The translations under genes and the position numbers were made by a program. This document shows, one piece after another, positions 9,770 through 49,193 of a stretch of 64,000 bases of DNA. Within the stretch, counting starts at the first letter, position 1, and each line of letters starts with the position of its first letter. This DNA comes from Alphaproteobacteria bacterium. GTDB lineage: Bacteria; Pseudomonadota; Alphaproteobacteria; JAAEOK01. Location of the stretch: assembly GCA_024244705.1 (NCBI GenBank), contig JAAEOK010000042.1, positions 88,764-152,763 on the forward strand, written 5' to 3'. Below the pieces are notes generated by a model. It was given only the letters and a program-made list of their open reading frames with translations, did not search any database and was not told where the DNA came from.

Positions 9770-10560
9770 GTCGATGTCCGTTTCGCCCGCACGAAGATTG
9801 GGCCGAAGAGTTTGTCCTGACGTAACTGCACGTGGCCTGATTTTGCCAATTCGAGACTGGCCCCGAACGTCGCGGCGACCGCCGACCTTCGAGTCAGAGG
9901 GTCGGCCAGGCCCTTCGGCAGATAGCTCGAAAGCGTCGCCCAATCCGGCATGGAGTCAAGCTTTTCGGTCAATCGAACGAGCGCTTCCTCGATTGAAAAC
10001 AGTATGACCGGATCGGAAATGCTGTAGGTCCCACCGGTGGTCCGGCGCTGCTGCAAACTGTAGGATTTCAGGAGCTCGAACAGGCTCGCGTCGTAGACCG
10101 AACTGCGCAGCACGGGAAACGATTCGGGCTCGCCGCGCGGGAATACGTCGCGGCCCAGGTGCGGGCGCTCGAACAAGGCGGCGCCGGCGTTACGCATGGA
10201 TTCCAGGCGGCGCAGTTGGAACGCCAAGGCAGCCGCCATCTCGGCGCCGGTCGGCTGTTCGCCGTCGTCGTCCGGCGGCGGCAGCAGCAGCCGGGATTTC
10301 AGATAGGCGAGCCAGGCCGCCATGACCAGATAATCGGCGGCCACCTCGAGGCGAAGATCCCGGGCGGCAGCGATGAAGGCGAGGTATTGCTCAGCCAACC
10401 GAAGTATCGAGATCTTGGTGAGATCGACCTTTTGCTCCCGGGCCAGCGCGAGAAGGACATCGAGCGGCCCCTCATAGGCCCCCAATTCGACCACCAGTCC
10501 GCCCTCGTTCGGCGGTGGTTGAAAATCGGTCTCAAGCCCGAATCCTTCGTCCGTAACCAT
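9766..10560 (-). CDS. scpA: segregation and condensation protein A
   Basis: ScpA/kleisin-like N-terminal region (LDVLLALAREQKVDLTKISILRLAEQYL). Upstream of scpB. Confidence 0.85.
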   Translation of the reverse strand: MVTDEGFGLETDFQPPPNEGGLVVELGAYEGPLDVLLALAREQKVDLTKISILRLAEQYLAFIAAARDLRLEVAADYLVMAAWLAYLKSRLLLPPPDDDGEQPTGAEMAAALAFQLRRLESMRNAGAALFERPHLGRDVFPRGEPESFPVLRSSVYDASLFELLKSYSLQQRRTTGGTYSISDPVILFSIEEALVRLTEKLDSMPDWATLSSYLPKGLADPLTRRSAVAATFGASLELAKSGHVQLRQDKLFGPIFVRAKRTST

Positions 10561-10567
10561 GGTTAGC

Positions 10568-11263
10568 CTATGATAATCCGACCAGATTCAAGATGATCTC
10601 CGCCAGGAACGATACCGGCACGAGGATAATATATTCGATCGGGTTGAAGTCGAGGCCGATTGCGTTGGTGACCATCGGAGCGAGAAATAGGATTCCGATG
10701 ATGAGCACCAAGCCGACCCGTTCGAGCCGTGCCAGGCGGAAGGCCATGGCGTCGGGCAGCAATCCGACCGCGACCCGGCCGCCATCGAGCGGTGGTATGG
10801 GAAACATGTTAAAGACGGCCAATACAAGATTGATAATCAGGGAATTTCTTAGATTCTCAAACACCCACTGGCCGAACTCCAGCGGCAATATCGGGATAAT
10901 GTGAATGAGGGCGGCGCTGATCAACGCCAGCCCGAGATTGGTACCGGGCCCGGCCGCCGCGACCAGGATCATGTCCCGGCGCGGGTGCTTGAGCCGGCTG
11001 AAATTGACCGGCACCGGCTTGGCATAGCCGAAGATGAACGGAGATCGCGCGATCAATAAGACCGCCGGGATGAGAATCGTTCCCACCGGATCGATGTGCT
11101 TGAACGGGTTGAATGTCACCCGACCTTTGACGAAAGCGGTCGGATCGCCGAGACGCCACGCGACATAGCCATGGGCGGCTTCGTGGAAGGTAATGGCAAT
11201 GATAACCGGCAGTGCCCAAACCGAGAGCCCGGTCAGAATGGCGTCGAAATCTATCCCCATCAT
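10568..11263 (-). CDS. site-2 protease family (M50) membrane zinc metalloprotease
   Basis: HEAAH zinc motif in a TM helix (ITFHEAAHGYVAW). Polytopic. Start assigned to MMGIDFD. Confidence 0.75.
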   Translation of the reverse strand: MMGIDFDAILTGLSVWALPVIIAITFHEAAHGYVAWRLGDPTAFVKGRVTFNPFKHIDPVGTILIPAVLLIARSPFIFGYAKPVPVNFSRLKHPRRDMILVAAAGPGTNLGLALISAALIHIIPILPLEFGQWVFENLRNSLIINLVLAVFNMFPIPPLDGGRVAVGLLPDAMAFRLARLERVGLVLIIGILFLAPMVTNAIGLDFNPIEYIILVPVSFLAEIILNLVGLS

Positions 11264-11270
11264 GCCAGCC

Positions 11271-12281
11271 TTAGCCCAAAAGGTCGGCCAGCGCCGCGGA
11301 AGCCGCTGCAACGTCGAAATCGGCCGCAGCCCCGATCAGCCGTGTCCCACGCTCGTAGCGTTCCCATCCCGCAGCGCCGAGTTCCGGGCATTCATCGGCG
11401 ATCTCGCGCATTTCGGTCAGATCTCCATTGCAATGAAGAATCACATCGCAACCGGCGGCAAGACTGAGCCGGGTACGATCGGCCATCGAACCGGCGAGCG
11501 CACCCATGCTGAGGTCGTCGGTCAACAGCAGACCGTCGAATCCGATTTCCCGGCGGATGACTTCTTCGATTACGACCTTGGAGAGGGTCGCCGCCATGGT
11601 CGGATCAAGCTGCTCATACAGGACATGCGCGGTCATCGCCCAAGGCATGTCGCGCAGCGCCTGAAACGGCACAAAATCAGTCTCCGCGAGCGCCGCCCTC
11701 GACGCATCGACGCGGGGCAGGCTCTTGTGACTGTCGGCCCGCGCCCGGCCATGCCCCGGTATATGCTTGATCACCGGCGTGACGCCCCCAGCCATCAGCC
11801 CTTCGCATGCCGCGCGCCCCAGTTCCGCGACGACCAAGGGATCGTCGCAATAGGCCCGGTCGCCGATGATGTCATGGGATCCCGCGGCCGGAATGTCGAG
11901 CACGGGCAGGCAATCGACATCGATGCCGATCGCCAGCAACTCGGCGGCAAGGAGGCGCGCGTTCAAACGAACCGCATCTTTGGCGCGGTCTTTATCGATT
12001 GCCGCCAAGCGGCCAAAAACGGCCGCCGCAGGAGCATCCCGCCAATGCGGGGGAGACAGCCGCTGAACCCGGCCGCCTTCCTGGTCGATCAGGACCGGGG
12101 CCCTGGAACGGTCGATGCATTCGCGCATGGCGAGTGTTAGCGCAGCGACCTGTTTCGGGCTTTCGCAATTCCGCGCGAACATAATGAAACCGAGCGGCGA
12201 CACGCTGCGGAAGAACGCCTTTTCTTCCGAGGTGAGTTCCAAACCGCCGCACCCGAAGATGACCGCTTTCGGCCTAGCCAT
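11271..12281 (-). CDS. nagZ: beta-N-acetylhexosaminidase (GH3, NagZ)
   Basis: GH3 NagZ signatures (KHIPGHGRARADSH, LLTDDLSMGA). Confidence 0.85.
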   Translation of the reverse strand: MARPKAVIFGCGGLELTSEEKAFFRSVSPLGFIMFARNCESPKQVAALTLAMRECIDRSRAPVLIDQEGGRVQRLSPPHWRDAPAAAVFGRLAAIDKDRAKDAVRLNARLLAAELLAIGIDVDCLPVLDIPAAGSHDIIGDRAYCDDPLVVAELGRAACEGLMAGGVTPVIKHIPGHGRARADSHKSLPRVDASRAALAETDFVPFQALRDMPWAMTAHVLYEQLDPTMAATLSKVVIEEVIRREIGFDGLLLTDDLSMGALAGSMADRTRLSLAAGCDVILHCNGDLTEMREIADECPELGAAGWERYERGTRLIGAAADFDVAAASAALADLLG

Positions 12282-31292: not shown

Positions 31293-33113
31293 ATGGCACG
31301 ATGCTTTCGCCGACGTACCCACATCGGGCGGCGCATGATCCTCGGAATAGTCCTTCTTTTCCTGCTTGTCGTCGGATCCCTCGGACTGGGGATACTTTCA
31401 ATCCGCGGACTGGGTCGTATCGGTGTGCTCACCCGGGCGCAGCCGCCTTCAATCGGCGAAACCGGATTGATGGGTCTCCTGACCCTCGCTTTGATCGCGC
31501 TTACAGTTCATTTCGCAATCCCTTTGGGTGGGCCCGTGCCCTGGATTGTCATCGGCGCCGGCGTCGCGGCCGCGGTCGTGTATTGTCGGTCGTTGTACAA
31601 GGCCTTCTCCCCGTCGCCGGTGGCCGGTCTCGCTTTGTTGCTCGCGTTGATCGTCATATTCGCGATTTACATCCCCGACCGCCCCCTAACATATGACAGC
31701 GGGTTTTATCATCTACAGGCGATGATGTGGATGCGGGACGAGCCGGTGATTTTCGGCTTGGCCCAAATCCACGGCCGATTCGGGTTCAATTCCGTGTGGC
31801 TCGGTGTCGGCGCCTTGGCCTGGCTGCCTGGATTCGGTGTGCGCGGCATTTTTTTGGCCGAAGCCCTGCCGGTCTTATTCGTGTTGCACGCGCTCATGCA
31901 GCATGTGCTGGCGGCGGAGAGATGGCGGGCGCTCCCCCTGTCGACGAGTTTCGCCGCCCTGACGCTCATATTCTTGCTGCTCCGCGGCAACTACTTTCTC
32001 ATCACCGGCATAACGTCGACCGACAATGTCACCGCCATGCTTGTCGTAATGTCCGTGTACCTGTTCCTTCGCACCGTCGATAGGGGCTGTTTCGGGAACG
32101 CGGAAGAGATATCGGACTTTCGGCTGGATGCGGTAATTCTGGCGTTGTTGTCGGTGATGACGATATTGGTAAAGCTCGCGCTCGTGCCGGTATTGCTATT
32201 GCCGATCGGTATCGTTGCGGCATCGTGGATCGGCCGCCTTCCCAAGCTGCCCGTGTTTCGACTGGGCCTGGTGGTCGGCGTCATCGGAATGCTGTGGTCG
32301 TTGCGGGCCTTCGTGCTCACCGGATGCTTGGTCTATCCGTCGGCACCGACATGCTTTCACACCCTCCCATGGGCGGTGCGCGCCCTCGACGTTCAGCTCG
32401 AATCCACCCATATCCACATGTTCCCGCGATTTCTCAGCAATGAGCCGCTCTTGCATCGCATGTACGGCGACAATTGGGCATGGGTTCCGACATGGTTCGA
32501 TATTATCTGGAACACTCGCGTGCCGAGACTGAGCAAAATGCCGAAAGCCATCGCAATTGTCACGGCGATCGCCGTCCTGGTTCGTGCTCTAGAGCTCGTT
32601 GTTCGACCACCGCCGAGGTCGAGAACATCCTCGGGAGATAGACGGTTGGCTTGGGCCGCCCTGTTCTGGTTGGGCTTGACGATCCTGGTTTGTATCGCGT
32701 TCTGGTTCCTGCTGGGTCCTCAGCCGCGATACATAGTGGGCCCGTTCGTGGCCTTGGCCGTCTTGCCGGGTACGATGATTCTGTGGCCCGGCGTCGCCGA
32801 TTTCAATATCGGGCGCGGTGGGCGCGCCGTGATCCTCCCCTTCTACGCCCTGGTTTTTGCATTTTTCGTAACCACCCTGGACCTTCGATGGCGAAGCTGG
32901 GCGCCGGACCCGGCCGAATTGCGCCCCAGTGTCGATCGCCACACAACGATCGACGGCGTGACCATTTTCGAGCCCCGCAGCGGACAACAATGCTATATGG
33001 CGCCTAAACCTTGTGCTCCCGACGTCAATCCCTATCTGGTTTTCGACCGCTTAGGCCCATATCTGATGATCCGAAACGAGGCTCCGGACGGCTTCGCCGT
33101 TCCACGGACATGA
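31293..33113 (+). CDS. large polytopic membrane protein of unknown function (at least 13 TM, possible GT-C-fold glycosyltransferase-like)
   Basis: Hydrophobicity pattern only. No recognised motif. Start may be the Met at codon 15. Confidence 0.5.
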   Translation: MARCFRRRTHIGRRMILGIVLLFLLVVGSLGLGILSIRGLGRIGVLTRAQPPSIGETGLMGLLTLALIALTVHFAIPLGGPVPWIVIGAGVAAAVVYCRSLYKAFSPSPVAGLALLLALIVIFAIYIPDRPLTYDSGFYHLQAMMWMRDEPVIFGLAQIHGRFGFNSVWLGVGALAWLPGFGVRGIFLAEALPVLFVLHALMQHVLAAERWRALPLSTSFAALTLIFLLLRGNYFLITGITSTDNVTAMLVVMSVYLFLRTVDRGCFGNAEEISDFRLDAVILALLSVMTILVKLALVPVLLLPIGIVAASWIGRLPKLPVFRLGLVVGVIGMLWSLRAFVLTGCLVYPSAPTCFHTLPWAVRALDVQLESTHIHMFPRFLSNEPLLHRMYGDNWAWVPTWFDIIWNTRVPRLSKMPKAIAIVTAIAVLVRALELVVRPPPRSRTSSGDRRLAWAALFWLGLTILVCIAFWFLLGPQPRYIVGPFVALAVLPGTMILWPGVADFNIGRGGRAVILPFYALVFAFFVTTLDLRWRSWAPDPAELRPSVDRHTTIDGVTIFEPRSGQQCYMAPKPCAPDVNPYLVFDRLGPYLMIRNEAPDGFAVPRT

Positions 33114-33223
33114 TCCGTTCCCAGGTCCAAAATACCGCAATTTGAATGCCTCGGCGGCTCATTGACCCGGGCGCGGCGAGGCCGATAGAGTGCCGCATCA
33201 ATTCAACCAGAAAGGGGCCGCAA

Positions 33224-34468
33224 ATGCCCGCCGACGTCAGTCTCGACATCGAATTTGTTCGCGCGCAGTTTCCGCCCTTGGCGGATGGGTGGGCCTTTCT
33301 CGAAAACGCCGGCGGCTCTTATGTTCCTGGTTCGGTGATCGACAGTACCGTCGCTTATATGAGCGAATCTCAGGTGCAGCCGGGCATCGTCGGCGCGTCG
33401 AAATTGGCATCCGAGAGAATTGCCGCTGGGCAGAATGGAATCGCGACGGCGCTTGGCGCCGAGGCCGACGAAGTCATCATCGGTCCTTCGACCTCAATGA
33501 ACGTCTACGTCTTGTCGCACGCCGTTCGACCCTGGCTCCGGCCAGGCGACGAGGTGATCGTGACCAATCTCGACCATGAAGCCAACAACACGCCGTGGCG
33601 GCGCCTAGAAGAGATTGGTGTTACCGTCAAGGAGTGGTGCTTCAACCCCGATACGGGGGGACTCGATTCGGATGCCCTGAGCGCACTGCTTACCGACCGA
33701 ACCCGATTCGTGTGTTTCTCCGCGTGCTCGAATATTACCGGCACGATCAACGATGTCGCCGGCCTTACGGCGCTTGCTCACGAGGCCGGTGCCGTCGTCT
33801 GTGTCGATGCGGTCGCCCTCGGATCCCATCGGGCGATTGACGTCAAGGCGCTCGATGTCGACTTTCTCGCTTGCAGCATTTACAAGCTCTATGGCCCGCA
33901 CGTTGCCGCCCTTTATGGGAAGCGTGAGCATTTCCTGCGGGCCAAAGGCCAAAACCACTATTTCTTCGGCGAGGATACCATTCCGCTGAAGCTCAATCCG
34001 GGCGGCGTGAACCACGAATTCACGGCCGCGCTCAAGGGTGTCATCGATTATTTCGACAGCGTTTACGCGTACCATTTCATGACCCCGGCAAACGACGTTC
34101 AAGCCCGCGTCCGCGCCGTCTATGGGTTGTTCGAGGATTTCGAGGAACGGCTGGTCACGCCATTCGTCGACTATCTGGAGAGCACCCCTTCGATCCGCCT
34201 GCTCGGCCTGATGACCGCCGATAAGACGCGGCGGGTGCCAACTTTCTCAATCGACGTGCCGGGCAAGGACCTGGCCGCGATACAGGCCATGGCCGCGGCG
34301 CGGCAGGTCAATATCGGCCTTAGTCACTTCTACGCGCCGCGCGCACTCGAAGGCTACGGCCTCGATGCCGAACGCGGCGTGCTGCGCATCAGCATGGTGC
34401 ATTACAACAATGCCGACGACGTGCAACGGGCCATAGCGGCCATCGACGAGGCGCTTTCGGCTGGCTAG
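33224..34468 (+). CDS. aminotransferase class V-fold PLP-dependent enzyme (cysteine desulfurase-like)
   Basis: PLP-lysine context ACSIYKLYGPH. Class V fold features (VTNLDHEANNTPW, FSACSNITG). Start at the internal Met MPADVS. Confidence 0.75.
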   Translation: MPADVSLDIEFVRAQFPPLADGWAFLENAGGSYVPGSVIDSTVAYMSESQVQPGIVGASKLASERIAAGQNGIATALGAEADEVIIGPSTSMNVYVLSHAVRPWLRPGDEVIVTNLDHEANNTPWRRLEEIGVTVKEWCFNPDTGGLDSDALSALLTDRTRFVCFSACSNITGTINDVAGLTALAHEAGAVVCVDAVALGSHRAIDVKALDVDFLACSIYKLYGPHVAALYGKREHFLRAKGQNHYFFGEDTIPLKLNPGGVNHEFTAALKGVIDYFDSVYAYHFMTPANDVQARVRAVYGLFEDFEERLVTPFVDYLESTPSIRLLGLMTADKTRRVPTFSIDVPGKDLAAIQAMAAARQVNIGLSHFYAPRALEGYGLDAERGVLRISMVHYNNADDVQRAIAAIDEALSAG

Positions 34469-34549
34469 ACGCCGAGGATTTCCGTTGTCGTTGAACCGCC
34501 ACATGCGTGCGGCCGCCGGCGCCGAATATCGGCGCGATATTGCAGGGTG

Positions 34550-35335
34550 TCAGGGTCGCGCGCCGGCCGCCTCGAGCAGGGCCGCGATCGTCGTATAGCC
34601 GCGTTGACGGGCCAGGCTGAGCGGCCGTGTCCCGCGCCCGTCGGCGAGGTCGATATCGGCGCCGGCCTCGATCAACGATCGAACGATCGCGATATGATTC
34701 GGCCCGCCGTCGCCAAGAACGATTGCCTCGATCAAGGCCGTCCAAGCAAGATTGTTGACGTGGTCGAGAGGTGCGCCGCCATCGATGAGGGCCTGCACGA
34801 CATCGACATGGCCGAGGTGCGATGCGGCGATCAATGCCGTGCCCTGGTAAGGGCTGGTGACAAGTCCGGTATCGGCCCCCGAGGCGATGGCGAGATTGAC
34901 CATGTCGATATCGTCGATGACCGCGGCGATGGTGAGCACATCGTATTGATCCCCATCGAGGGCATTGATATCGGCGCCGGCTGCGATCAGCGCCTGGGCG
35001 GCACCGAGATCCCGTTGATAGCCGGCGATCATCAACGGTGTTCGGCCATGCCCATCGCGCACGTCAACACCGTCTCCCGCGGACACCAAACGCTGGATCT
35101 CGCTGATATCGCCGGCTATCGCGGCCTTGTGGAGGCCGTCATAGGCCGAGACTTCATGCGATGACGGTGCAGTCTGAATTTGTTGATACCCGGAAAACGG
35201 CTCGATCACGGTCGAGCCTACCATTTGCCCGAAGTAAGGCGAAGCCAGGACCTCTCCACACAAGGAGCAGGCGACAACGGTTGCGGCGAACAAGCCCGAT
35301 ATTCGGTCGAGTCGATTGTTGGATGTCCACCTCAT
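34550..35335 (-). CDS. ankyrin-repeat protein, probable lipoprotein/periplasmic
   Basis: Lipobox-like TVVAC after a signal sequence. At least 5 ankyrin repeats (GRTPLMIAGYQRDLGAAQALIAAGADINALD etc.). Confidence 0.75.
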   Translation of the reverse strand: MRWTSNNRLDRISGLFAATVVACSLCGEVLASPYFGQMVGSTVIEPFSGYQQIQTAPSSHEVSAYDGLHKAAIAGDISEIQRLVSAGDGVDVRDGHGRTPLMIAGYQRDLGAAQALIAAGADINALDGDQYDVLTIAAVIDDIDMVNLAIASGADTGLVTSPYQGTALIAASHLGHVDVVQALIDGGAPLDHVNNLAWTALIEAIVLGDGGPNHIAIVRSLIEAGADIDLADGRGTRPLSLARQRGYTTIAALLEAAGARP

Positions 35336-36183
35336 TGACCGACCTGCTGGTCTGCCGATTTGACGCTATCAAGGCGCACATTCACGGCGCCCGCAGGATT
35401 GTGATTTGGCCGCCGCCAGCGTCTTAGGGATATCGGGCGTGCCCATCTCGAAATCCAACGCAGCTTGGGACGCGGGCGGAGCCAATCGTGCAACCTATCG
35501 ATATCGACGCGCGCGGGCCGGACGATCGGACCGTTGGCGAGACGATGGCTGCGTCCGCTCAGACCATTCTTCTTGCATAGCAAACTGAAGATCGACTGGT
35601 CGTGACGATGGTCACGAAAGCCGGCCATGTTGGATTTGCCACATTCATTTTCGGCATCGGACAAGATTCTCGGGTCCAGGGCGAACCGCAGCCATTCGGC
35701 GACAAAGGTGCGACTAAATTCGTTGCAAACGAATATCAGTAATCCTGTCTCGATCTGCTTGTCGTCATGGAATTCCGCGCGGTCGCAATCCATCAGAATG
35801 AAGGCGTCGCGCTTCGTCCAGGTCCGCTCGGTACCGGTATCGCAAACGAATCCAAGCACGCCGGGAGTCTCGTCGCAACATAGGCGCACAAGGGGTTCCA
35901 CCGATCGAATAAACACGGAACCGGAATCGCAATAGATCAGAACGTCGCCCGGTTCCGCCTTCTCGAGCGCATCGGCAATGATATAAGGTTTCCACAACCA
36001 ATAGCCGGCGCCCCGATCCTGGTCCAAGACCTCCTTGTTCTTGCGTCGGAAGGCCTCATCGAGATCACCGGCGCCATAAGACCAACAAAGGTCGATACGG
36101 CCGGCCGTTAGCCCTGTCCACGTATTTCGAACCTGGGATTTCAAGAACGGGCAGTCGGCATAATTGATGAGGACGGTTTTCAA
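35332..36183 (-). CDS. hypothetical protein, possibly nucleotide-sugar-dependent glycosyltransferase-like (GYWLWKPYII motif). Lower local GC. Arg/Trp-rich C-terminus.
   Basis: ORF with an ATGA overlap onto the ankyrin gene start. Motif recognition is weak. GC visibly lower between roughly 35600 and 36180. Confidence 0.4.
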   Translation of the reverse strand: MKTVLINYADCPFLKSQVRNTWTGLTAGRIDLCWSYGAGDLDEAFRRKNKEVLDQDRGAGYWLWKPYIIADALEKAEPGDVLIYCDSGSVFIRSVEPLVRLCCDETPGVLGFVCDTGTERTWTKRDAFILMDCDRAEFHDDKQIETGLLIFVCNEFSRTFVAEWLRFALDPRILSDAENECGKSNMAGFRDHRHDQSIFSLLCKKNGLSGRSHRLANGPIVRPARVDIDRLHDWLRPRPKLRWISRWARPISLRRWRRPNHNPAGAVNVRLDSVKSADQQVGQ

Positions 36184-41172: not shown

Positions 41173-41832
41173 TCAGAACGTGAAACTGGCCGGCTTCCGG
41201 AACCCGGGAAGCAGATGGATCGCGGCGTCGAAGACGGTTCGATGCCATATCCTTCCGGCCTCTTTCAGGAACAATGTGGCGCGCCCGACGCCGCCCCCGC
41301 CGTCCGAGATCACGGCGGCGGCCCGGCCATTCTCGCCGAGCTGATCGAAATACACCGCCGGCACTTCGTCGACGGCGCCGTCGAACAGAATGACTCCGAA
41401 GGGTCCTTGCGCCGGGCAGCCGTCGGTTAGCGGGCCCTCGACCACGACGGCGTTATCAATGCCCAAAGCGACCAGAGCGTCATTCGCTTTTCGAGCCAGG
41501 GCCGGGTCGGATTCCAGCACAACAACCGTGGTGCAGATGTCTGCGAGCACCGCCGCGGAATAGCCGGTCGCCCCGCCCACGACGAGTGCTATTTCGGACG
41601 CCTCGGGAGACATTTCCTGCAACAAGCGCGCCAATACCATCGGTTCCATGAGGTAGCGGTCACGATCGATGGCGATATCCTCGTCAACATAGGCAATGCT
41701 GCGCATCGACTCGGGAACGAAATTCTCGCGCGGCACCTTGGTCAGGGCCTCGACAATCGCCGGATCGTTGACCTTGTTGGTCCGAATCTGACATTCGACC
41801 ATATGCTGACGAGCAATCGTGTAATCGGACAT
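41173..41832 (-). CDS. protein-L-isoaspartate O-methyltransferase family protein (second PIMT paralogue)
   Basis: SAM-MTase motif ALVVGGATGYSAAVLA and PIMT-like N-terminus. Start at MSDYTIARQHM. Commonly adjacent to tolC in alphaproteobacteria. Confidence 0.75.
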   Translation of the reverse strand: MSDYTIARQHMVECQIRTNKVNDPAIVEALTKVPRENFVPESMRSIAYVDEDIAIDRDRYLMEPMVLARLLQEMSPEASEIALVVGGATGYSAAVLADICTTVVVLESDPALARKANDALVALGIDNAVVVEGPLTDGCPAQGPFGVILFDGAVDEVPAVYFDQLGENGRAAAVISDGGGGVGRATLFLKEAGRIWHRTVFDAAIHLLPGFRKPASFTF

Positions 41833-42002
41833 ATGCCGATCTCCCTTGGACGAATAAGACCGCCCACGTCGATGGGCGCGAGACGAACATCCTGGGCGTT
41901 TATAGTCCCGCAATTCGGTGGATACAACGCCCCTCGGGCAAAGCCGCCTTGACCGGATGGCGCGCACTCCCTATACCACGGCGCGACTTTTCCCCACCCT
42001 CC

Positions 42003-42076
42003 GGCCGGGTGGCAGAGTGGTTATGCAGAGGACTGCAAATCCTTGTACGTCGGTTCGATTCCGGCCCCGGCCTCCA
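42003..42076 (+). tRNA. tRNA-Cys (anticodon GCA)
   Basis: Cloverleaf folded by eye: acceptor GGCCGGG/CCCGGCC, anticodon loop CUGCAAA, T-loop GGTTCGATTCC, encoded CCA. Confidence 0.85.
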
Positions 42077-42413
42077 GTCGTGCGAAAACCGCTGATCGAT
42101 AGCCCGAAATCAAAATCCGTGTGCGCCATCGCTGGCGCGAAATCGGACGCACACGAGGGGCGTTGTCGACGATACGGATTCCCGGCGGGGTCTCCGGTTC
42201 ATTGCCTCCGCCTGTTGCGCAAATCCGCAAGACCTCCCGCGCATGGAAGGTAAACCGCTCGGTGGCGCAACCGAGTGGCGCGACACGACTTGGCTGCCCG
42301 GTCCAGGGGCGACAAGAGGACTTGGCTTTCCCCAGCGGGCTGTGACAACATAAGCCGGTGGTGCGTTGATCGATGGTGTGGTTGCCGACAACCTCAGAGG
42401 GGGGCAAACAGCC

Positions 42414-43619
42414 ATGGCGAAGGCAAAATCATCACGTTATAGTCCAATTCGCAGGCTCGGCCTGACCGGCCCGCGGGCCAGAATCGAAGTCGCCACCTCG
42501 GCGGAGGATCGCCTGCCGGAAGACGATTCGCCCGATTTCACCCTGTCGCTGCCCGCGCATCCGCAATTGAGCGATACCGATATGGCCGCGCTGCGCCGCC
42601 AAGGTCTCGAGCAAGAGCTGCGGGCGCTCAAGGATGAAGAGAAGCTGGCGAAAAAGATCATGCGGCTTCAGGACGGTTTCAGCAAGAAGGTCGCGCAGAC
42701 CGTCGGCCTACAGGCCTGGTCCGCATTACGTGCCGAGATCATGCGTGACCGGGCCAGGCTCCACCGCCTGCGGCTCAGCGATACGGCGACCGGTACGACG
42801 GATGAGGACGAAGACGAAAAACGCCGCGCGGCGGCGGCCGATCGCTACGAGGCCGCGCTGCGCCGCGCCGGTTTAGATTCCGCCGACCTTCGTCAGGCGA
42901 CGACGGGCTACCGGAAAGCGCTCGGCGCTGCGTTCGCGGGGGCCGCCGCTCCCGACCCATCTATCCAGATGATTTCCCGCGAGTGGGGCCTGCCAACCGG
43001 CGAACCTCAAGACACGCGCCAGATATGGGACAGTTTCTTCTACCACCGGACACGAACCCAAAAGGGTGGCGATCGGGATCTGTTACAACCGTTTGTCGAG
43101 GCCAATCGGGAGACCGGCAGGCTCCGCGTCGACCATGTCTGGGAAAACCATGATTCCGGCAACGCCGATGCCTTCTGGTTCTGGGGCACGAGTCAGTTGG
43201 GCGAGGTGCTTTGGCTGAATGCCGGCGAATCTTTCTCGCTCGAGGTCACCATCCGGTGCGTTCACACGGTCTACGAGGTCTTTGGCAAGGACGAGTGGGG
43301 TTGGTCGGATGCCTATTATTCCGGCCGTACGATTCTACTGATCGAGGTCGGGCCCCATCAGCACCGAGCCGACATCTGGGCCCATTCTGGCGGCACCGTC
43401 GGGCATCGGCTCATTACCCCGGTGGCCCAGGGTGAGGTGCGCACCTTTCGTATCGATAATATCGGTCCAATCGCAGCCGGCGGTTTCTACATCGTTTGGT
43501 CGGGGCTGCGCCAAATCCAGTGGAGCGAACAGAACGACTTTTCGCTCAATATCTTGCACCGCGACCGGTGGAAGCTGGTCAGCGTGAAAGTCATTCAACG
43601 GGCCAATCAGCGGCCATAA
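42414..43619 (+). CDS. hypothetical protein (coiled-coil/charged N-terminal half plus Trp-rich C-terminal domain). No recognisable family.
   Basis: Long ORF with normal local GC. Start assigned to MAKAKSSRY. Confidence 0.45.
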   Translation: MAKAKSSRYSPIRRLGLTGPRARIEVATSAEDRLPEDDSPDFTLSLPAHPQLSDTDMAALRRQGLEQELRALKDEEKLAKKIMRLQDGFSKKVAQTVGLQAWSALRAEIMRDRARLHRLRLSDTATGTTDEDEDEKRRAAAADRYEAALRRAGLDSADLRQATTGYRKALGAAFAGAAAPDPSIQMISREWGLPTGEPQDTRQIWDSFFYHRTRTQKGGDRDLLQPFVEANRETGRLRVDHVWENHDSGNADAFWFWGTSQLGEVLWLNAGESFSLEVTIRCVHTVYEVFGKDEWGWSDAYYSGRTILLIEVGPHQHRADIWAHSGGTVGHRLITPVAQGEVRTFRIDNIGPIAAGGFYIVWSGLRQIQWSEQNDFSLNILHRDRWKLVSVKVIQRANQRP

Positions 43620-43631
43620 CTCGCGGCCAGT

Positions 43632-44270
43632 TTATCTCTCGAGGACGACCTTGACCTCGTGGCCCGAGACCGTGTTCTCGAACTGAACCAGTTCTTTCTT
43701 CGTGTTAAACCATAAAGATGCCTTCCAACTGCCTGTAAAATCGAATCTTTCCGTCTCAATTGATTGTTTATCGGATTTCAGGGTTTCGTTCTTTTTCGAT
43801 ACCGAAACCTGCCAGACCGATAGGTCCTTCATGTCGAAAATCGCCGATGCCGTGGTAATGCCGTAGTGCCAGAACGCGCTGGGAAACGCGGTCACGGGAA
43901 GCTCCACCGGTTTGCCGTTCAGGGTGGCCTCGTATCCCGACTTGGTCCGTTTCACCGTGGCCTCGTATTTGGTCCCGTCATCGTCGGTTTCGGCGTGCAT
44001 GGATTGCAGCTCTCCGTCCTCCCAGTCTTCGTGGATCGTTTGCGTGAAACTGTAGACATCGATGCCGAGCACGGACATCGATGCATTCGATTTCAGGGTC
44101 TCGACATCATCGTTATCTCCGCGCGTCTCGGTAAGGTGGATTTGGCCAACCTTGTCGTCATCGATATAAACCGACGCGAAGAAGTTCGCCGCTTTGGCGG
44201 TATCCGCGCCGGCGTCATGGGGCATGACCAAGGTGACCGTAGTCGCGAACAGCAATGCGAAGAGTCTCAT
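43632..44270 (-). CDS. hypothetical secreted protein (signal peptide, beta-rich). Markedly lower GC than the surroundings.
   Basis: Signal peptide MRLFALLFATTVTLVMPHDAGA. AT-richer codon usage is visible. Confidence 0.45.
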   Translation of the reverse strand: MRLFALLFATTVTLVMPHDAGADTAKAANFFASVYIDDDKVGQIHLTETRGDNDDVETLKSNASMSVLGIDVYSFTQTIHEDWEDGELQSMHAETDDDGTKYEATVKRTKSGYEATLNGKPVELPVTAFPSAFWHYGITTASAIFDMKDLSVWQVSVSKKNETLKSDKQSIETERFDFTGSWKASLWFNTKKELVQFENTVSGHEVKVVLER

Positions 44271-44367
44271 CACCGGATATCCTCCTATGTTGCCTGCTCG
44301 GCCGGCCCTAAACCGCCCTGATTTGTCCGCCGGGGCAGCACCACGGTTTCGCCCTCCGGGCCCGAGT

Positions 44368-45339
44368 TCAATTCGAGACATCGTAAGCCTCGACTGCGTC
44401 GGTCAGCGAAATCACCGTCCGAGCGCCGGCCTCCTCGCCCCCGCCGACAACATACCACCGGCTGCCGACGATGGCCGAGGTCAGGCCGTGCCGGGGAGTC
44501 GGCATATCCGCCTGGGTCGACCATGTGTCGGTCTCGGGGTCGTAGACCTCATGCGCGGCAAAGGTCCATCCGGGCGAGAACGCCTCACCGCCGGTGACGT
44601 GAAGCCGACCGTCCAAAGCCCCGGCCGCAAGCCCGCCTCGCGGCGTCGGCATGTCCGCCGCCCCACGCCATCGATCCGTCACCGGGTCGTAGATTTCGAG
44701 TGTTGACCGGTTGCCGGCGCCAAATCCGCGGCCACCGACGACATAGAGTTCGCCGCCGAGGACCGCCGCGCTCAGGTGCTCGCGCGCGGTTGGAAGCGGA
44801 GCTCGCGACGTATCCCAGATTCCCGTCTGCGGATCGAAAACCTGCATTTTCCGATGCTCGGGCCCGACGCCACCGACCACGAACAGCTTGCCATCCAGCG
44901 CCGCCATGGCGTGGGCGGCTCGGGGCAGCGGCATCGGCGGTTCTTCGCGCCAACGCCTGGTCTGGGGGTCATAGGAGAACATCGCCGTTCGATCGGGATC
45001 GAAAGCAATGCTGTCGTAGCCGCCGGTGACGTAAATCCTGCCGGCCAATCCGGCCATGCCGAGATGATGCAGGGTTTCGGGCATCGCCGGCAGCTCTTCC
45101 CAAGATTCCGACCGAGGATCGAAGGCCTCGAAAGTCGCCGTGGTGCCGAACAGGGTCAGACCGCCGCCGACATAGATCCGGTCACCCACGACCGCCGCCG
45201 CGATTTCCGACTGGGCGGTCGACATTTGCGGCGCGGTGGCCCATTCGCCCGCAGCCGCCGATCCCACGGCCGCGGCAAATACGAATTGGCAGAGCACACC
45301 GGCACGAAACAAAGACATGCCCGGATCATAGTTCGCCAT
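44368..45339 (-). CDS. Kelch-repeat (galactose-oxidase-like beta-propeller) protein, secreted
   Basis: Signal peptide. About 6 Kelch-like blades (repeated GG...YV.GG, W...P.P.PR motifs). Confidence 0.7.
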   Translation of the reverse strand: MANYDPGMSLFRAGVLCQFVFAAAVGSAAAGEWATAPQMSTAQSEIAAAVVGDRIYVGGGLTLFGTTATFEAFDPRSESWEELPAMPETLHHLGMAGLAGRIYVTGGYDSIAFDPDRTAMFSYDPQTRRWREEPPMPLPRAAHAMAALDGKLFVVGGVGPEHRKMQVFDPQTGIWDTSRAPLPTAREHLSAAVLGGELYVVGGRGFGAGNRSTLEIYDPVTDRWRGAADMPTPRGGLAAGALDGRLHVTGGEAFSPGWTFAAHEVYDPETDTWSTQADMPTPRHGLTSAIVGSRWYVVGGGEEAGARTVISLTDAVEAYDVSN

Positions 45340-45494
45340 GTCGCGATTGTCGCGATCGGCGTGACGGAGAGTCCCGTTCGGCAATCGCAATCGGCAGCCA
45401 CCACCGGGCCCGACGGTGTTGCCAACGCAGCCGCCGCCCTGCTATAAGGCCGCGCCGTCAACGGCCGTATTGCGGACGGTCGATTTCGACCTGA

Positions 45495-45570
45495 TCCCCG
45501 GTAGCTCAGTTGGTAGAGCGGGTGGCTGTTAACCACCATGTCGCTGGTTCGAGTCCGGCCCGGGGAGCCA
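45495..45570 (+). tRNA. tRNA-Asn (anticodon GUU)
   Basis: Acceptor TCCCCGG/CCGGGGA, anticodon loop CUGUUAA, GGTTCGAGTCC T-loop, CCA encoded. Followed by a GC-rich segment plus T7 run (likely terminator). Confidence 0.9.
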
Positions 45571-45865
45571 ACCAATCTAGGGCGTTGGGCAGCCGAGCTC
45601 AGCCCTTTTTTTGATTCCTGCGTAAGGGCCGACCGGCCCATCCTGCCGGATCTGAACCGACTTTCGCTCCAACTGCCATGTTTGCTACGCTACCAATGGT
45701 CGCACATGGTCATGCGGGGAAATTCGGATCCATGAACGATTGTTCTCAGTAAGTTACGAATGTTGCGGTCGAGACGCCGGCCAGACAGTCACGAAAGACA
45801 CCATCGGCGAGGACTGGTCAAAATGCTGAACGATCGTCGCGTAAGAGTGTAAGGGGGAAGCCGCC

Positions 45866-47575
45866 ATGGAATTCATCGATCGCATTTTCGATGCGGCGCC
45901 CATATTGGCGATCTTCGTCACGATTGCCGTCGGCTTCTCGATCGGAAAGCTGACGATCGGAAAGTTCGTGCTCGGCGGAATTGCCGGCACCTTGATCGCC
46001 GGTGTCGTGATCGGACAGCTCGACGTCAAAGTCGATGACAACCTCAAGAACATCTTCTTTGCGTTATTTATCTATGCCGTCGGCTATCAGGGCGGCCCGC
46101 AATTCTTCCATGCCCTCAACCTGCGCACGCTCAACCAGCTCGCGTCCGCCGCCGTCATGTGCATCGTTGGATTGCTCTGCGTGCTTGCCGCGGCGTGGAT
46201 GTTCGATCTCGACCGCGGAACGGCGGCCGGCCTAGCGGCCGGTGGGCTGACCCAATCGGCGATCCTCGGCACGGCGGGCGATTCCCTGGCCAAGCTCAAC
46301 GTTTCGCCGGAGCTGATCAAGGCGATGCAAACCAATCTCGCGGTCGGCTATGCGGTCTGCTACATCTTCGGCAACCTGGGTCCGATCATCATGGTTACCT
46401 GGTTCTTCCCGACGATCATGAAGTGGGACATCCGGCAGGAGGCGCTCAAACTCGCCAAGGATATGTCGGGGGGCCGGGCCGAAATCGAGCCGGGGCAATT
46501 CAACATGGCCGTTACCGTAACGACTCGGTTCTATGAAGTCACCGGCGACGGCAAGGCAAACGGCAAGACGGCGCTCGAGATCGACGGCGCGCTTTCCGAC
46601 GCTGCCGTCGAAGTATTGCTTCGGGACGGCAAGAAGATCGAGTTCGACAACGACTCCAAGGTCATGGCGGGCGATATCGTCGGAATCACCGGAAAGGTCC
46701 CTGTCCTGGAATCGGCAAGCGATTATTTCGGCCACGAAGTCGTCGCCCCGGATGATTTCGAACTGGTCGAGGAACAGCGCCACGTGGTTTTGACCAACCG
46801 CAAGCTCCACGGCCGGACGATCAAGCAATTGCACGACCATGTCGGCGTCGAAACTCGTCACGGCGTGTTCGTGGTCGGCGTCAATCGCATGGGCCGGCAC
46901 CTCCCCCTCTATCCCAACCTCGAATTGCATACCGGCGACGAGATGCGCCTGATTGGCCGCACCAAGGACCTCGATCGCGTCCAGTCGCAGATCGGGTACA
47001 AGATCTCTGCGGCAGCGATTACCGATTTCATCTTCTTCGGCATCGGAATGGGGATTGGCGTCCTCCTCGGCATGCTCCAGTTCAAGGTCGCCGGCATCCC
47101 GGTGACGATCGGCGCCGGCGGCGGCTGTCTCCTGTCGGGGCTGTTCTTCGGCTGGCTGCGCAGCGTCCACCCGCGTTTCGCCGCGCTGCCGATGGGGGCG
47201 TCGAATTACCTCCGCGATTTCGGCCTCGCCGTCTTCGTCGGCGTCGTCGGCCTGACCGCGGGGCCCCAGGCTTTGGTCACCTTGGAGCAATACGGCCTGT
47301 TGTTGCTCTTTCTCGGTGCCGGCGTGACCCTGATTCCGCAGCTCATCGTTTTCCCCTTCTCCTATTTCGTCCTGCGCATCAGAAACCCGATCGAGGCCCT
47401 CGCCTGCGTCGCCGGCGGACGCAGCGCGAACCCCACTTTCGCCGCCCTGCTGGCGAAGGCCGGCAACGCGACGCCGGTCGTTACGTTTACCGTGACCTAT
47501 GCGGTCGCCAACGTATTGCTCACATTGTGGGGGCCGCTCATCGTCGGCTTCATTACCACCAATCCCGCCCCATAG
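45866..47575 (+). CDS. aspT: aspartate:alanine antiporter (AAE family, AspT/YidE/YbjL-like) with two central TrkA_C (RCK_C) domains
   Basis: Duplicated 5-6 TM halves flanking two RCK_C-like domains. Adjacent to asdA. Confidence 0.8.
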   Translation: MEFIDRIFDAAPILAIFVTIAVGFSIGKLTIGKFVLGGIAGTLIAGVVIGQLDVKVDDNLKNIFFALFIYAVGYQGGPQFFHALNLRTLNQLASAAVMCIVGLLCVLAAAWMFDLDRGTAAGLAAGGLTQSAILGTAGDSLAKLNVSPELIKAMQTNLAVGYAVCYIFGNLGPIIMVTWFFPTIMKWDIRQEALKLAKDMSGGRAEIEPGQFNMAVTVTTRFYEVTGDGKANGKTALEIDGALSDAAVEVLLRDGKKIEFDNDSKVMAGDIVGITGKVPVLESASDYFGHEVVAPDDFELVEEQRHVVLTNRKLHGRTIKQLHDHVGVETRHGVFVVGVNRMGRHLPLYPNLELHTGDEMRLIGRTKDLDRVQSQIGYKISAAAITDFIFFGIGMGIGVLLGMLQFKVAGIPVTIGAGGGCLLSGLFFGWLRSVHPRFAALPMGASNYLRDFGLAVFVGVVGLTAGPQALVTLEQYGLLLLFLGAGVTLIPQLIVFPFSYFVLRIRNPIEALACVAGGRSANPTFAALLAKAGNATPVVTFTVTYAVANVLLTLWGPLIVGFITTNPAP

Positions 47576-47597
47576 ACCGGCGTAGAGAGGACATCCC

Positions 47598-49193
47598 ATG
47601 TCGGAGCACGATTACAGCCAGTTCGCCGATTTGAGTCCGTTCGAACTAAAGAACAAGCTGATCGAGATCGCCTCGACCGACTCGGAACGCATGATGCTGA
47701 ACGCCGGTCGCGGCAATCCGAACTTTCTCGCGACCCTGCCGCGGCGCGCCTTCCTGCGCCTCGGTGACTTTGCCCTCCAGGAGGCCGAGCGGTCCTACGC
47801 CTATCTGGACAGCGGTTACGGCGGCCTGCCGGAGCGGACGGGGATCGTCGAAAGGTTTCATGCCTACGCCCATCACCACCTGGACACCGAGGGCGTACGC
47901 TTTCTGGAATCGGCGGTCTCCTACGTTCGCGATCAGATGGGGCTGGATCGCGAGGGCTTCCTCTTCGAGGCGGTTGGCGCGTTCCTCGGCTGCACCTATC
48001 CGACCCCGCCGCGCATGCTTCGGCACTGCGAAGAGATCGTGAAAGCCTACCTTTCGAAGGAGATGTATGGCCAGAAAGCCCGAGGCGGGGACTTCTCGCT
48101 GTTCGCCACGGAAGGCGGAACGGCGGCGATGACCTACATATTCCAAACCTTGCGGGAGAATAGGCTGATCGCCCCGGGCGAGAAGATCGCCCTGGGCACG
48201 CCGATCTTCTCGCCTTACCTGGAGATACCGCCGCTCGCCGACTATCAGTTGGAAATCGTCGATGTCCGGATGGATGAGGATGCCGACTGGCAATACCCCG
48301 AAGCCGAGTTGCGAAAGCTCGAGGATCCGGCGATCAAGTTCCTTTGCGTGGTCAATCCGAGCAACCCGCCGTCGGTGAAGATCTCGAACACCGGACTGGA
48401 CCAAATCTCAAAACTGATCGCCACCAAGCGTCCTAATCTCATTGTCGTTACCGACGATGTCTATGGGACCTTCGCGGACAATTTCGTTTCGCTGTTCGCG
48501 ACCTGCCCGCGCAACACGCTGTGCGTTTACTCGTTCTCCAAATATTTCGGCGCGACCGGATGGCGGCTCGGCGTCATCGGATTGCACGAGGACAACGTGC
48601 TGGACGACGCGCTGGCGGCGCTGCCGGAGGACTCGAAGAAGGCGCTCGATGCGCGCTATTCATCGCTGACCACCGAGCCGCGGGCCTTACGCTTCATCGA
48701 TCGCCTGGTTGCCGACAGCCGAACCGTCGCGTTGAATCATACGGCTGGACTTTCGGTGCCGCAGCAATTGCAGATGATGCTATTCGCGCTCAACGGGTTG
48801 ATGGATCGGGGCGACCGCTACAAGAATTCGGCCAAGGCACTCATCCGCGACCGTTACCGGACCCTGTGGGAGAATATGGGGCTTGACCCCCATCGCGAAC
48901 CGGATGACGTCAACTATTACACGTTGATCGACCTGCAGAAGCTCGGCGAAAAACTCTACGGCAAGGCGTTCGCAACCTGGTTCCGCAAGGGCAACAAGGG
49001 CACCGACTTCCTCTTTCGCTTGGCCAAGGAGACCGGTGTCGTGTTGTTGCCGGGCAAGGGCTTCGAGGTCGTCGATTCGTCGGCGCGCGTGTCGCTGGCG
49101 AACCTGACAGAAGCCGATTACATCGCGATCGGATCGCTCGCCCGAAAGGTGCTCGACGAGTACCACGCCGATTTCGAGCAGGGAGGCGCTTGA
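47598..49193 (+). CDS. asdA: bifunctional aspartate transaminase / L-aspartate 4-(beta)-decarboxylase
   Basis: About 530-aa fold-type I PLP enzyme with PLP-Lys context SFSKYFGATGWRLG. Paired with aspT as in the described Asp decarboxylation/antiport operon. Confidence 0.8.
   Translation: MSEHDYSQFADLSPFELKNKLIEIASTDSERMMLNAGRGNPNFLATLPRRAFLRLGDFALQEAERSYAYLDSGYGGLPERTGIVERFHAYAHHHLDTEGVRFLESAVSYVRDQMGLDREGFLFEAVGAFLGCTYPTPPRMLRHCEEIVKAYLSKEMYGQKARGGDFSLFATEGGTAAMTYIFQTLRENRLIAPGEKIALGTPIFSPYLEIPPLADYQLEIVDVRMDEDADWQYPEAELRKLEDPAIKFLCVVNPSNPPSVKISNTGLDQISKLIATKRPNLIVVTDDVYGTFADNFVSLFATCPRNTLCVYSFSKYFGATGWRLGVIGLHEDNVLDDALAALPEDSKKALDARYSSLTTEPRALRFIDRLVADSRTVALNHTAGLSVPQQLQMMLFALNGLMDRGDRYKNSAKALIRDRYRTLWENMGLDPHREPDDVNYYTLIDLQKLGEKLYGKAFATWFRKGNKGTDFLFRLAKETGVVLLPGKGFEVVDSSARVSLANLTEADYIAIGSLARKVLDEYHADFEQGGA

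Follow-up and report, generated by a model that had tools for sequence, protein, structure and literature searches.

Genomic islands associated with tRNA genes are known in bacteria, an example being the asn-tRNA-linked high-pathogenicity island of Yersinia. The locus described here, which lies within a 64,000-nt stretch of alphaproteobacterial DNA (the window), is similar to such islands in that lineage-specific accessory genes adjoin tRNA genes and are absent from relatives, and in that the same site carries different cargo in other genomes. However, it differs from these islands in that it spans just 3.4 kb between two tRNA genes with no duplicated tRNA 3' end, and in that an integrase, an att direct repeat and a compositional signature are all missing. 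ARAGORN and Rfam both identified tRNA-Cys and tRNA-Asn, and the three open reading frames in the 3,418-nt gap between them agree with the gene content given in a preliminary description of this DNA (Table 1). tRNA-Cys, the left border of the proposed insert, closes the conserved block valS-DUF2497-tolC-pcm-tRNA-Cys. The 401-aa and 212-aa proteins are encoded convergently, as had been described, with stop codons 12 nt apart, while the Kelch gene shares its strand with the 212-aa (DUF6134) gene and lies 97 nt upstream of it, so that these two may be co-transcribed. A terminator-like hairpin directly 3' of tRNA-Asn is likely where the (ancestral) transcription unit of the tRNAs ends. Beyond both tRNAs, Rfam returned just two sub-threshold matches to miRNA models, which were dismissed. 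We also observed a 13-nt perfect inverted repeat that straddles tRNA-Cys, with arms at 41924-41936 and 42154-42166.

Table 1. Features of the interval between tRNA-Cys and tRNA-Asn and its borders, in window positions.
Feature	Position	Strand	Evidence or remark
tRNA-Cys (GCA)	42003-42076	+	ARAGORN; Rfam tRNA, 62 bits
Non-coding spacer, 337 nt	42077-42413		between tRNA-Cys and the 401-aa gene
401-aa protein gene, rare unnamed family	42414-43619	+	ORF from 42366; ATG at 42414
212-aa DUF6134 protein gene	43632-44270	-	PF19630; GGAGG ribosome-binding site
Six-repeat Kelch protein gene, 323 aa	44368-45339	-	Kelch_1, 6 stretches
Spacer, Kelch gene start to tRNA-Asn; right edge of the proposed insert	45340-45494		sequence
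tRNA-Asn (GTT)	45495-45570	+	ARAGORN; Rfam, 67 bits
Terminator-like hairpin with T-run	45584-45603	+	consensus scan, pattern match only

The interval was compared with 92 related pcm loci, 40 of them derived from genomes and 52 from metagenomes, the latter surveyed for tRNA spacing only. All of these relatives are distant, with Pcm identities of at most 56%, and a metagenome scan via Pcm for closer ones found none above 55% identity. The left flank, valS-DUF2497-tolC-pcm, is kept in 28-40 relatives. Both tRNAs are present in 32 pcm-linked loci, in which the gap between them has a median of 126 nt and measures at most 200 nt in 21, 200-1000 nt in eight and more than 1 kb in three; the gap in the window would rank second largest. 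The arrangement seen most often, in many lineages of Alphaproteobacteria, is pcm followed by tRNA-Cys and tRNA-Asn with 5-200 nt between the two tRNAs (21/32), and none of the three genes was found by tblastn in the 40 genome-derived loci. As the relatives are distant and their right flanks are not syntenic with the window, absence of the genes is weak evidence on its own. Considered together with the short gap in 21 of the 32 loci, it makes a lineage-specific insertion the simplest explanation, and compared with every relative sampled, the interval shows a derived state. We therefore consider the interval to be, with reasonable probability, a 3.4-kb lineage-specific insertion that placed accessory genes within an ancestral tandem tRNA-Cys-tRNA-Asn pair downstream of valS-DUF2497-tolC-pcm. 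The two tRNAs of the ancestor would have stood in tandem and were probably co-transcribed, and the insert would comprise two independent units, namely the solitary 401-aa gene and the same-strand pair of Kelch followed by DUF6134.

As no insertion scars were found, the case for an insertion is one of parsimony only, and the arrangement could instead have arisen through movement of a tRNA or another rearrangement. A second, distal copy of tRNA-Asn might have come to lie beyond the genes with subsequent loss of the proximal copy, or an inversion or translocation breakpoint at the tRNA pair might have brought existing chromosomal genes in between. The locus does vary in the number and order of its tRNA genes, as one relative has two tandem tRNA-Asn copies after tRNA-Cys (L015) and four have the order Asn-Cys (L006, L007, L021, and L065). 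The tandem tRNA-Cys-tRNA-Asn pair is common, but not universal, as no tRNA-Asn follows in 11 relatives whose sequence continues for 3.5 kb or more past tRNA-Cys. On the right side of tRNA-Asn, from 45.6 to 64 kb, no relative is syntenic with the window, which suggests that synteny generally breaks at the tRNA pair, and blastn of both spacers and the region past tRNA-Asn against the 92 loci gave only chance-level matches of 15-30 nt, which did not locate the insertion point. That all three genes are native in composition, as described below, would likewise fit long residence in this genome. However, a rearrangement requires more steps than one insertion, and the three accessory families involved are patchily distributed with no fixed context, which is typical of horizontally moving cargo. 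In addition, other relatives carry independent and differing inserts exactly between both tRNAs, including an RND transporter (L038), a low-GC insert of 2 kb (L007), and expansions of 0.8-1.5 kb with either small ORFs only or no coding sequence (L004, L009, L017, and L019). We thus regard a rearrangement as rather unlikely and infer that the event was an insertion. The spacer of the tandem tRNA pair would then be a recurrent landing site that takes up unrelated accessory cargo without integrase scars.

In the preliminary description, a visibly AT-rich 212-aa gene was taken as a compositional shift pointing to foreign origin. The dip is real but modest. Between 43400 and 44000, GC content falls to 0.52-0.54, compared with an average of 0.61 for the window, and in 1-kb bins the dip has a GC content of 0.564, no lower than three other bins of the window. 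In a rough greedy gene call, the 212-aa gene had the lowest GC content of 53 ORFs (0.535 counted from its true start, 0.549 for the long ORF). With a GC3 of 0.71, it is nevertheless typical of the window in this respect (0.731 ± 0.05, mean ± sd), as are the 401-aa (0.72) and Kelch (0.75) genes, both of which are compositionally native. The deficit of the 212-aa gene is located in codon positions 1 and 2 (GC2 of 0.38) and recurs in five other genomes, whose DUF6134 genes are 2.4-6.1 GC points below their flanks. The gene is therefore AT-richer because of the amino acid composition of its product, and the reading of the dip as a sign of foreign origin is not upheld. The AT-richness of a gene can thus reflect a trait of the protein family rather than its provenance.

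Searches for signs of mobility agreed with the earlier statement that there is neither an integrase nor a direct repeat of the tRNA 3' end. Pfam scans revealed no recombinase or transposase in the spacer ORFs or in neighbouring genes across 31-59 kb, and the spacer that follows tRNA-Cys gave no Pfam match in any ORF and contains neither an integrase remnant nor an att-like repeat. With up to two mismatches allowed, the terminal 20 or 25 nt of either tRNA have no second copy in the whole window, the last 16-25 nt have none inside the interval, and the only repeat common to both tRNAs is their T-arm. The sole extra match to a tRNA end, a 16-mer with up to two mismatches at 53916, approximately 8 kb past tRNA-Asn, is probably due to chance. 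A search of 72,556 plasmids and 50,697 phages yielded no homologue of the 401-aa protein, while the DUF6134 protein gave one distant match at 23.8% identity among the plasmids.

These results bear on whether the interval is an islet that integrated at the 3' end of tRNA-Cys and whose integrase and att repeat were lost afterwards. The position of the genes directly 3' of a tRNA gene and their absence from relatives would agree with such an origin, and the 337-nt non-coding stretch could be a decayed integrase gene, but no recombinase domain is present in any spacer frame, no tRNA end is repeated within the interval, and GC3 is native in all three genes. The lack of plasmid and phage homologues of the 401-aa protein also argues against it, and an interval of 3.4 kb that consists of two convergent transcription units does not look like an integrative element. 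An integrase-mediated islet is accordingly highly improbable. The suggestion that the genes form an island thus holds as regards their absence from the corresponding site in relatives, but not as regards an integrase, an att repeat or an atypical composition. Given native composition and no mobility functions, the insertion that we favour would have been acquired long ago and since ameliorated, or have come from a donor of similar GC content, or have occurred through illegitimate recombination and not through a tRNA-targeting integrase.

Of the two genes on the reverse strand, the one encoding the 212-aa protein, whose ATG is preceded by GGAGG at a distance of 9 nt, had been described as lacking a family. 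Its product is in fact a plain member of DUF6134 (PF19630; E = 1.8e-31, 110 bits versus a cut-off of 27.9), and the match runs from end to end, with residues 34-210 aligned to positions 3-183 of the 184-position profile. Thirty homologues with 42-57% identity carry the same precomputed Pfam match. The N-terminus, MRLFALLFATTVTLVMPHDAGA, is signal peptide-like, suggesting that the protein is exported; this segment is conserved in the family, as are the invariant residues, and nothing sets the 212-aa protein apart from other members. No solved relative was found by sequence, and a literature search for DUF6134 found no paper. A match of the protein to PDC-M15B in PADLOC/PHROGs was insignificant (E = 0.011). 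In four unrelated genomic contexts, DUF6134 homologues are encoded without a Kelch partner.

The start codon of the upstream Kelch gene is uncertain, with 45390, 45339, and 45318 as candidates, and the N-terminus of its product, MSLFRAGVLCQFVFAAAVGSAAA, is a probable signal peptide, suggesting that this protein is also exported. Kelch_1 matched in six stretches (E = 2.6e-47), and in the PDB the protein matched KEAP1 and designed Kelch proteins with six blades (E = 1e-72 to 1e-49), consistent with the six-blade secreted Kelch propeller proposed at the outset. With six repeats and strong matches to the Kelch domain of KEAP1 and to the designed SAKe6, the protein resembles bacterial secreted six-blade Kelch propellers; it has no BTB or BACK domains and is an ordinary Kelch protein. 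Assignment as an N-acetylneuraminate mutarotase of the NanM/YjhT type was rejected (NF010730, 53.5 bits versus a cut-off of 416; TIGR03547, 50.8 versus 256), as was a GlxA-type radical copper oxidase (21.8 bits versus a cut-off of 800).

The 401-aa gene, in which a Shine-Dalgarno-like run, GAGGGG, lies approximately 10 nt upstream of the ATG, encodes a protein that contains the previously quoted sequence VWENHDSGNADAFWFWG and, as had been stated, belongs to no recognisable family, with no match in Pfam, NCBIfam, PHROGs, PADLOC, or the PDB. Word-indexed homology searching recovered only the protein itself from a single query, and itself and two members when single-query and family-alignment runs were combined, whereas an exhaustive HMMER search gave 13 matches, eight of which share its architecture or C-terminal domain. 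Approximately nine architecture-sharing clusters are present among 1.84 billion representatives, and by these sequence comparisons the protein is a member of a very rare, unnamed family. As the closest homologue (31-34% identity) comes from an Acidobacteria metagenome-assembled genome, the distribution of the family is patchy. Family motifs include [WFY]xNx[DN]xGD[FW]D, DE[WF]GxS and W/VxGxx(6)ND, and E294 and D375 are acidic residues invariant in the family; inspection revealed no apparent signal peptide. With its distinct two-domain architecture and conserved acidic motifs, the family is a candidate for registration as a new domain family.

An AlphaFold2 (AF2) model generated from the 9-sequence alignment (pLDDT 73.4, pTM 0.71) was used in place of a single-sequence model with a pLDDT of 39. 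It predicts that the N-terminal residues 1-37 are disordered, that residues 54-176 form four long helices and that residues from approximately 210 to 395 fold into an elongated beta-sandwich. No confident structural relative of the beta-sandwich was found, all fold matches being sub-threshold. The best neighbour of the model was Bdellovibrio Bd1399 (PDB 8okh), a predation-associated secreted protein, and the elongated beta-sandwich or jelly-roll comparators of the C-terminal domain also included glycoside hydrolases of families GH11/GH12 (clan GH-C) and the carbohydrate-binding modules CBM4/6/22/36/61, which it resembles weakly in fold searches. The acidic N-x-D-x-G-D-x-D loop suggests that the protein may be a metal- or ligand-binding module on a helical stalk, a functional reading drawn from a medium-confidence model built on nine sequences and from sub-threshold fold matches. 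A bolder proposal is that the protein founds a new family of effector- or toxin-like proteins that would be exported non-classically, with the helical stalk presenting a Ca2+- or glycan-binding beta-sandwich, and that would move between phyla (Alphaproteobacteria, Acidobacteriota, and others) as solitary cargo lodging in variable regions; we consider this unlikely.

Several other candidate relationships of the 401-aa protein were rejected. A three-domain Cry toxin gave only local Foldseek matches (Cry5B and Cry8Ba2, TM ≤ 0.15), and the predicted secondary structure has no beta-prism domain. Matches to Tsi6 (E = 0.84) and to designed helical repeats in sequence and profile searches of the PDB were insignificant and rejected as compositional. 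The giant repeat proteins P0006, P0007, and P0009 have in common with it a local motif of approximately 40 residues (RVDHVW..DSG...G.L) but not its architecture, and a relationship between its C-terminal domain and DUF6134 received a profile-profile probability of 0.1%. A LuxR-type response regulator encoded upstream of the P0014 homologue is missing from four other contexts and is thus not a conserved partner.

Whether the three genes might constitute one functional system, in which, for example, the 401-aa protein senses or binds a glycan or envelope ligand on which the exported Kelch and DUF6134 proteins act, was also considered. Their physical clustering, the co-orientation of the Kelch and DUF6134 genes across a short gap, the predicted export of both products and the weak resemblance of the 401-aa C-terminal domain to carbohydrate-binding folds could all be accommodated by such a system. 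However, the 401-aa gene runs convergently towards the other two, its product has no apparent signal peptide, and the pcm loci searched by tblastn contain none of the three. Moreover, homologues of the 401-aa protein are encoded by solitary genes in five different contexts, and neither these nor the four DUF6134 contexts have a recurrent partner. As the homologues of both proteins are solitary and in unrelated surroundings, the three genes do not appear to be a module, and a single system is very unlikely.

Two further observations concern the surroundings of these genes. The closest homologue of the 401-aa protein is encoded approximately 1 kb from an orphan Rhs-core fragment and genes for putative immunity-like lipoproteins; this nearby fragment, the Bd1399 neighbour and the giant-repeat-like stretch are hints of an effector or toxin, each of which is insignificant alone. 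In the window itself, the right flank opens directly after tRNA-Asn with genes for an aspartate:alanine exchanger and an aspartate decarboxylase-like protein.

The interval between tRNA-Cys and tRNA-Asn spans 3,418 nt and contains three ORFs, each with a clear coding signature in which GC3 lies far above GC2. The three genes and their two tRNA borders, as given in the preliminary description, were confirmed by the ORF calls and by ARAGORN and Rfam, respectively. The 401-aa and 212-aa genes are convergent with a stop-to-stop gap of 12 nt, and the 212-aa (DUF6134) and Kelch genes share an orientation and are separated by 97 nt. The N-terminus of the 212-aa protein (MRLFALLFATTVTLVMPHDAGA) resembles a signal peptide, and the Kelch protein carries a signal-like hydrophobic stretch (MSLFRAGVLCQFVFAAAVGSAAA). 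The 401-aa protein shows no evident signal peptide and contains the previously quoted peptide WENHDSGNADAFWFWG. On its two sides, tRNA-Cys is flanked by the arms of a perfect inverted repeat of 13 nt (ACAACGCCCCTCG / CGAGGGGCGTTGT, at 41924-41936 and 42154-42166) that has no other copy in the window; at least two matches were obtained in only 1 of 100 shuffles.

Features of the tRNA-Cys to tRNA-Asn interval and the adjacent comparison anchor
Feature	Position	Strand	Remarks
pcm (Pcm, comparison anchor)	41173-41832	-	
tRNA-Cys(GCA)	42003-42076	+	ARAGORN, Rfam
401-aa gene	42414-43619	+	GAGGGG run ~10 nt 5' of ATG
212-aa gene	43632-44270	-	GGAGG 9 nt 5' of ATG
Kelch gene, 323 aa	44368-45339	-	start uncertain
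tRNA-Asn(GTT)	45495-45570	+	ARAGORN, Rfam

Relatives were compared using a Pcm-anchored sample of loci, 40 from genomes and 52 from metagenomes. As Pcm identity nowhere exceeded 56%, sampling of the window's lineage is poor. Conservation in relatives extends over the left flank, valS-DUF2497-tolC-pcm-tRNA-Cys. Among the 32 loci with both tRNAs, which include Rhodospirillales-like, Hyphomicrobiales-like, PS1 and Rhodobiaceae genomes, the gap between tRNA-Cys and tRNA-Asn is ≤200 nt in 21 (minimum 5 nt), 200-1000 nt in eight and >1 kb in three, with a median of 126 nt. None of the three genes was found in the relatives' 10-kb pcm flanks, with tblastn covering the 40 genome loci, and nothing of the window's content from 45.6 to 64 kb was found there either. 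Because short-gap loci span many lineages, the most parsimonious ancestral state is a tandem tRNA-Cys/tRNA-Asn pair, with the 3.4 kb of the window as a derived insertion. Alternatively, a tRNA may have moved instead of genes having been inserted. In eleven relatives with at least 3.5 kb of sequence beyond tRNA-Cys, that stretch lacks tRNA-Asn; the order is Asn-Cys at four loci (L006, L007, L021 and L065), and one relative has two tRNA-Asn copies after tRNA-Cys (L015, 9378-9837). The reversed order and the duplicate copy show that tRNA order and copy number are fluid and, together with the missing tRNA-Asn, make tRNA movement a conceivable, if rather unlikely, origin of the spacing. Gene insertion is the reading we prefer. 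Unrelated inserts occur at the same spot in relatives, namely 6.9 kb containing a 1080-aa RND/AcrB-type transporter between both tRNAs of L038 (2873-9758), a 2-kb insert with a 259-aa ORF in L007 (7641-9692; GC 0.570 versus 0.679 for the genome), and expansions of 0.8-1.5 kb in further relatives, and the tRNA-Cys/tRNA-Asn spacer is thus marked as a recurrent landing site.

The insert is a small, integrase-less and compositionally native accessory insertion into a tandem tRNA spacer. The earlier observation that integrases and direct repeats of the tRNA 3' end are lacking held across the spacers, the window and the neighbouring genes. No recombinase or transposase domains were found in the spacer ORFs and neighbours from 31 to 59 kb, and the last 20-25 nt of either tRNA have no further copy anywhere in the window. 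The sole extra tRNA-end match is a 16-mer (≤2 mismatches) at 53916, outside the interval, in which the T-arm shared by both tRNAs is the only tRNA-related repeat. These results, together with the failure to find a plasmid or phage homologue of the 401-aa protein, argue against an integrase island at the tRNA, which in its strong form we consider highly unlikely; the DUF6134 protein has one match to a chromid, which is distant. The proposed islet is thus partly supported, as a probable lineage-specific insertion (tandem pair in 21/32 loci), but not as an integrase-bearing or compositionally foreign one. Sliding-window GC reproduced the AT-rich dip from which foreign origin had been argued (0.52-0.54 at 43400-44000, equal at 1-kb resolution to three other window bins), and among the 53 genes kept by a rough gene call, the one for DUF6134 is lowest in GC. 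Measured from its true start, its GC3 is 0.71, versus 0.731 (sd 0.05) on average across the window, with a GC1 of 0.52 and a GC2 of 0.38, and the deficit thus reflects amino-acid composition. DUF6134 genes from five other genomes (GC 62-70%) all lie 2.4-6.1 points under their flanks, with a GC2 of 0.36-0.46; AT-richness is a trait of the family. The 401-aa gene (GC 0.619, GC3 0.72) and the Kelch gene (GC 0.660, GC3 0.75) are native-like. Given the native GC3 and the family trait, we reject the compositional case for foreign origin.

The 401-aa family, rare and unnamed, is the sole moderately novel element of the insert. Consistent with its initial description as lacking a recognisable family, the protein has no match in Pfam, NCBIfam, PHROGs, PADLOC or the PDB, and a word-indexed search of 5.8 billion clusters returned only itself (hypothetical protein, alphaproteobacterial MAG). 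An exhaustive HMMER search against 1.84 billion representatives yielded 13 proteins at E ≤ 1e-3, of which eight are true relatives. P0002 aligns with residues 77-400 at 31-34% identity (E 1e-37), P0003, from an 819-nt contig, matches the C-domain only, and P0004, P0005, P0008, P0010, P0011 and P0013 are 365-409 aa long. The relatives, none with a Pfam match, have in common an N-half that is helical and charged, a ~190-residue C-domain, the motifs [WFY]xNx[DN]xGD[FW]D, DE[WF]GxS and an ND pair, and invariant E294, G296, S298, G364, N374, D375 and W386. The remaining four matches are giant repeat proteins whose similarity is limited to a local ~40-residue motif. Three giant metagenomic proteins, P0006 (1318 aa), P0007 (2305 aa) and P0009 (4455 aa), contain 11-24 tandem units of the type 'RVDHVWSRSDSG..FT.Y.Y...G.LVFT.SG', with local likeness to residues 233-275 of the 401-aa protein; this repeat family is unannotated in Pfam. 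Profile comparison ruled out a relationship between the 401-aa C-domain and DUF6134.

As a single-sequence model was unusable, an AlphaFold2 model from a 9-sequence alignment was taken (pLDDT 73.4, pTM 0.71), with residues 1-37 disordered, 54-176 forming four long helices and 210-395 a sandwich of long antiparallel strands (pLDDT 80-90). Fold searches found no confident relative, and Foldseek likewise gave low TM-scores. We tentatively suggest that the protein could be a metal- or ligand-binding beta-sandwich mounted on a helical stalk. Its homologues are solitary genes in five differing contexts, one group having a LuxR-type response regulator upstream. In L041-L046, the P0014 contexts, the homologue lies 73 nt downstream of a co-oriented NarL/LuxR-type response regulator, in a lineage with an OprD porin neighbour and small MazE-like genes nearby. 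The closest homologue, P0002, belongs to an Acidobacteria MAG (L107), with an orphan Rhs-core fragment ~1 kb away (10004-10216; TIGR03696, E 7e-8) and, nearby, a fragment that weakly resembles a REP-associated tyrosine transposase (11827-12180); the region at 9531-12180 looks like a polymorphic-toxin remnant. Small lipoprotein-like ORFs come after the Rhs-core fragment. That the 401-aa protein represents a new family of effector- or toxin-like proteins that moves horizontally is improbable.

The 212-aa protein, previously treated by implication as of unknown family, is a full-length DUF6134 member (PF19630, 110 bits versus a cut-off of 27.9) with 30 homologues at 42-57% identity, and that label was therefore wrong. 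The family is uncharacterised; a search of one literature library yielded no paper on it and a sequence search no solved structural relative. Neighbours of the homologues are unrelated, being an FAD oxidoreductase, a lactonase, a methyltransferase or a tandem DUF6134 paralogue, with toxin-antitoxin genes frequent nearby and no Kelch partner in the contexts examined. In L104 (1088-2724), tandem paralogues P0016 and P0017 (212 aa each; 57% and 51% identity with the protein of the window) adjoin a radical-SAM gene. The 323-aa protein is a six-repeat Kelch propeller, ordinary of its kind, and in the PDB it matches SAKe6 designs and KEAP1 (E 1e-72 to 1e-49); NanM/YjhT and GlxA assignments fell far below cut-off. 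The three inter-tRNA genes make up a mosaic of accessory cargo rather than a system.

Directly 3' of tRNA-Asn (45866-49193, + strand), a 569-aa Asp-Al_Ex/TrkA_C permease of the aspartate:alanine exchanger type is followed 22 nt later by a class I/II aminotransferase of 531 aa, the size of an aspartate 4-decarboxylase. The pair, with an unusually high GC3 of 0.80-0.82, looks like a two-gene aspartate decarboxylation/exchange energy cycle, and neither gene was found in the relatives' flanks. Left of valS, at 31293-36183, lie genes for 606-aa and 283-aa proteins without Pfam match (GC 0.565 for the latter) and for an ankyrin-repeat protein (34550-35335); none of the three was found in the relatives' flanks, and this region may be another accessory patch.
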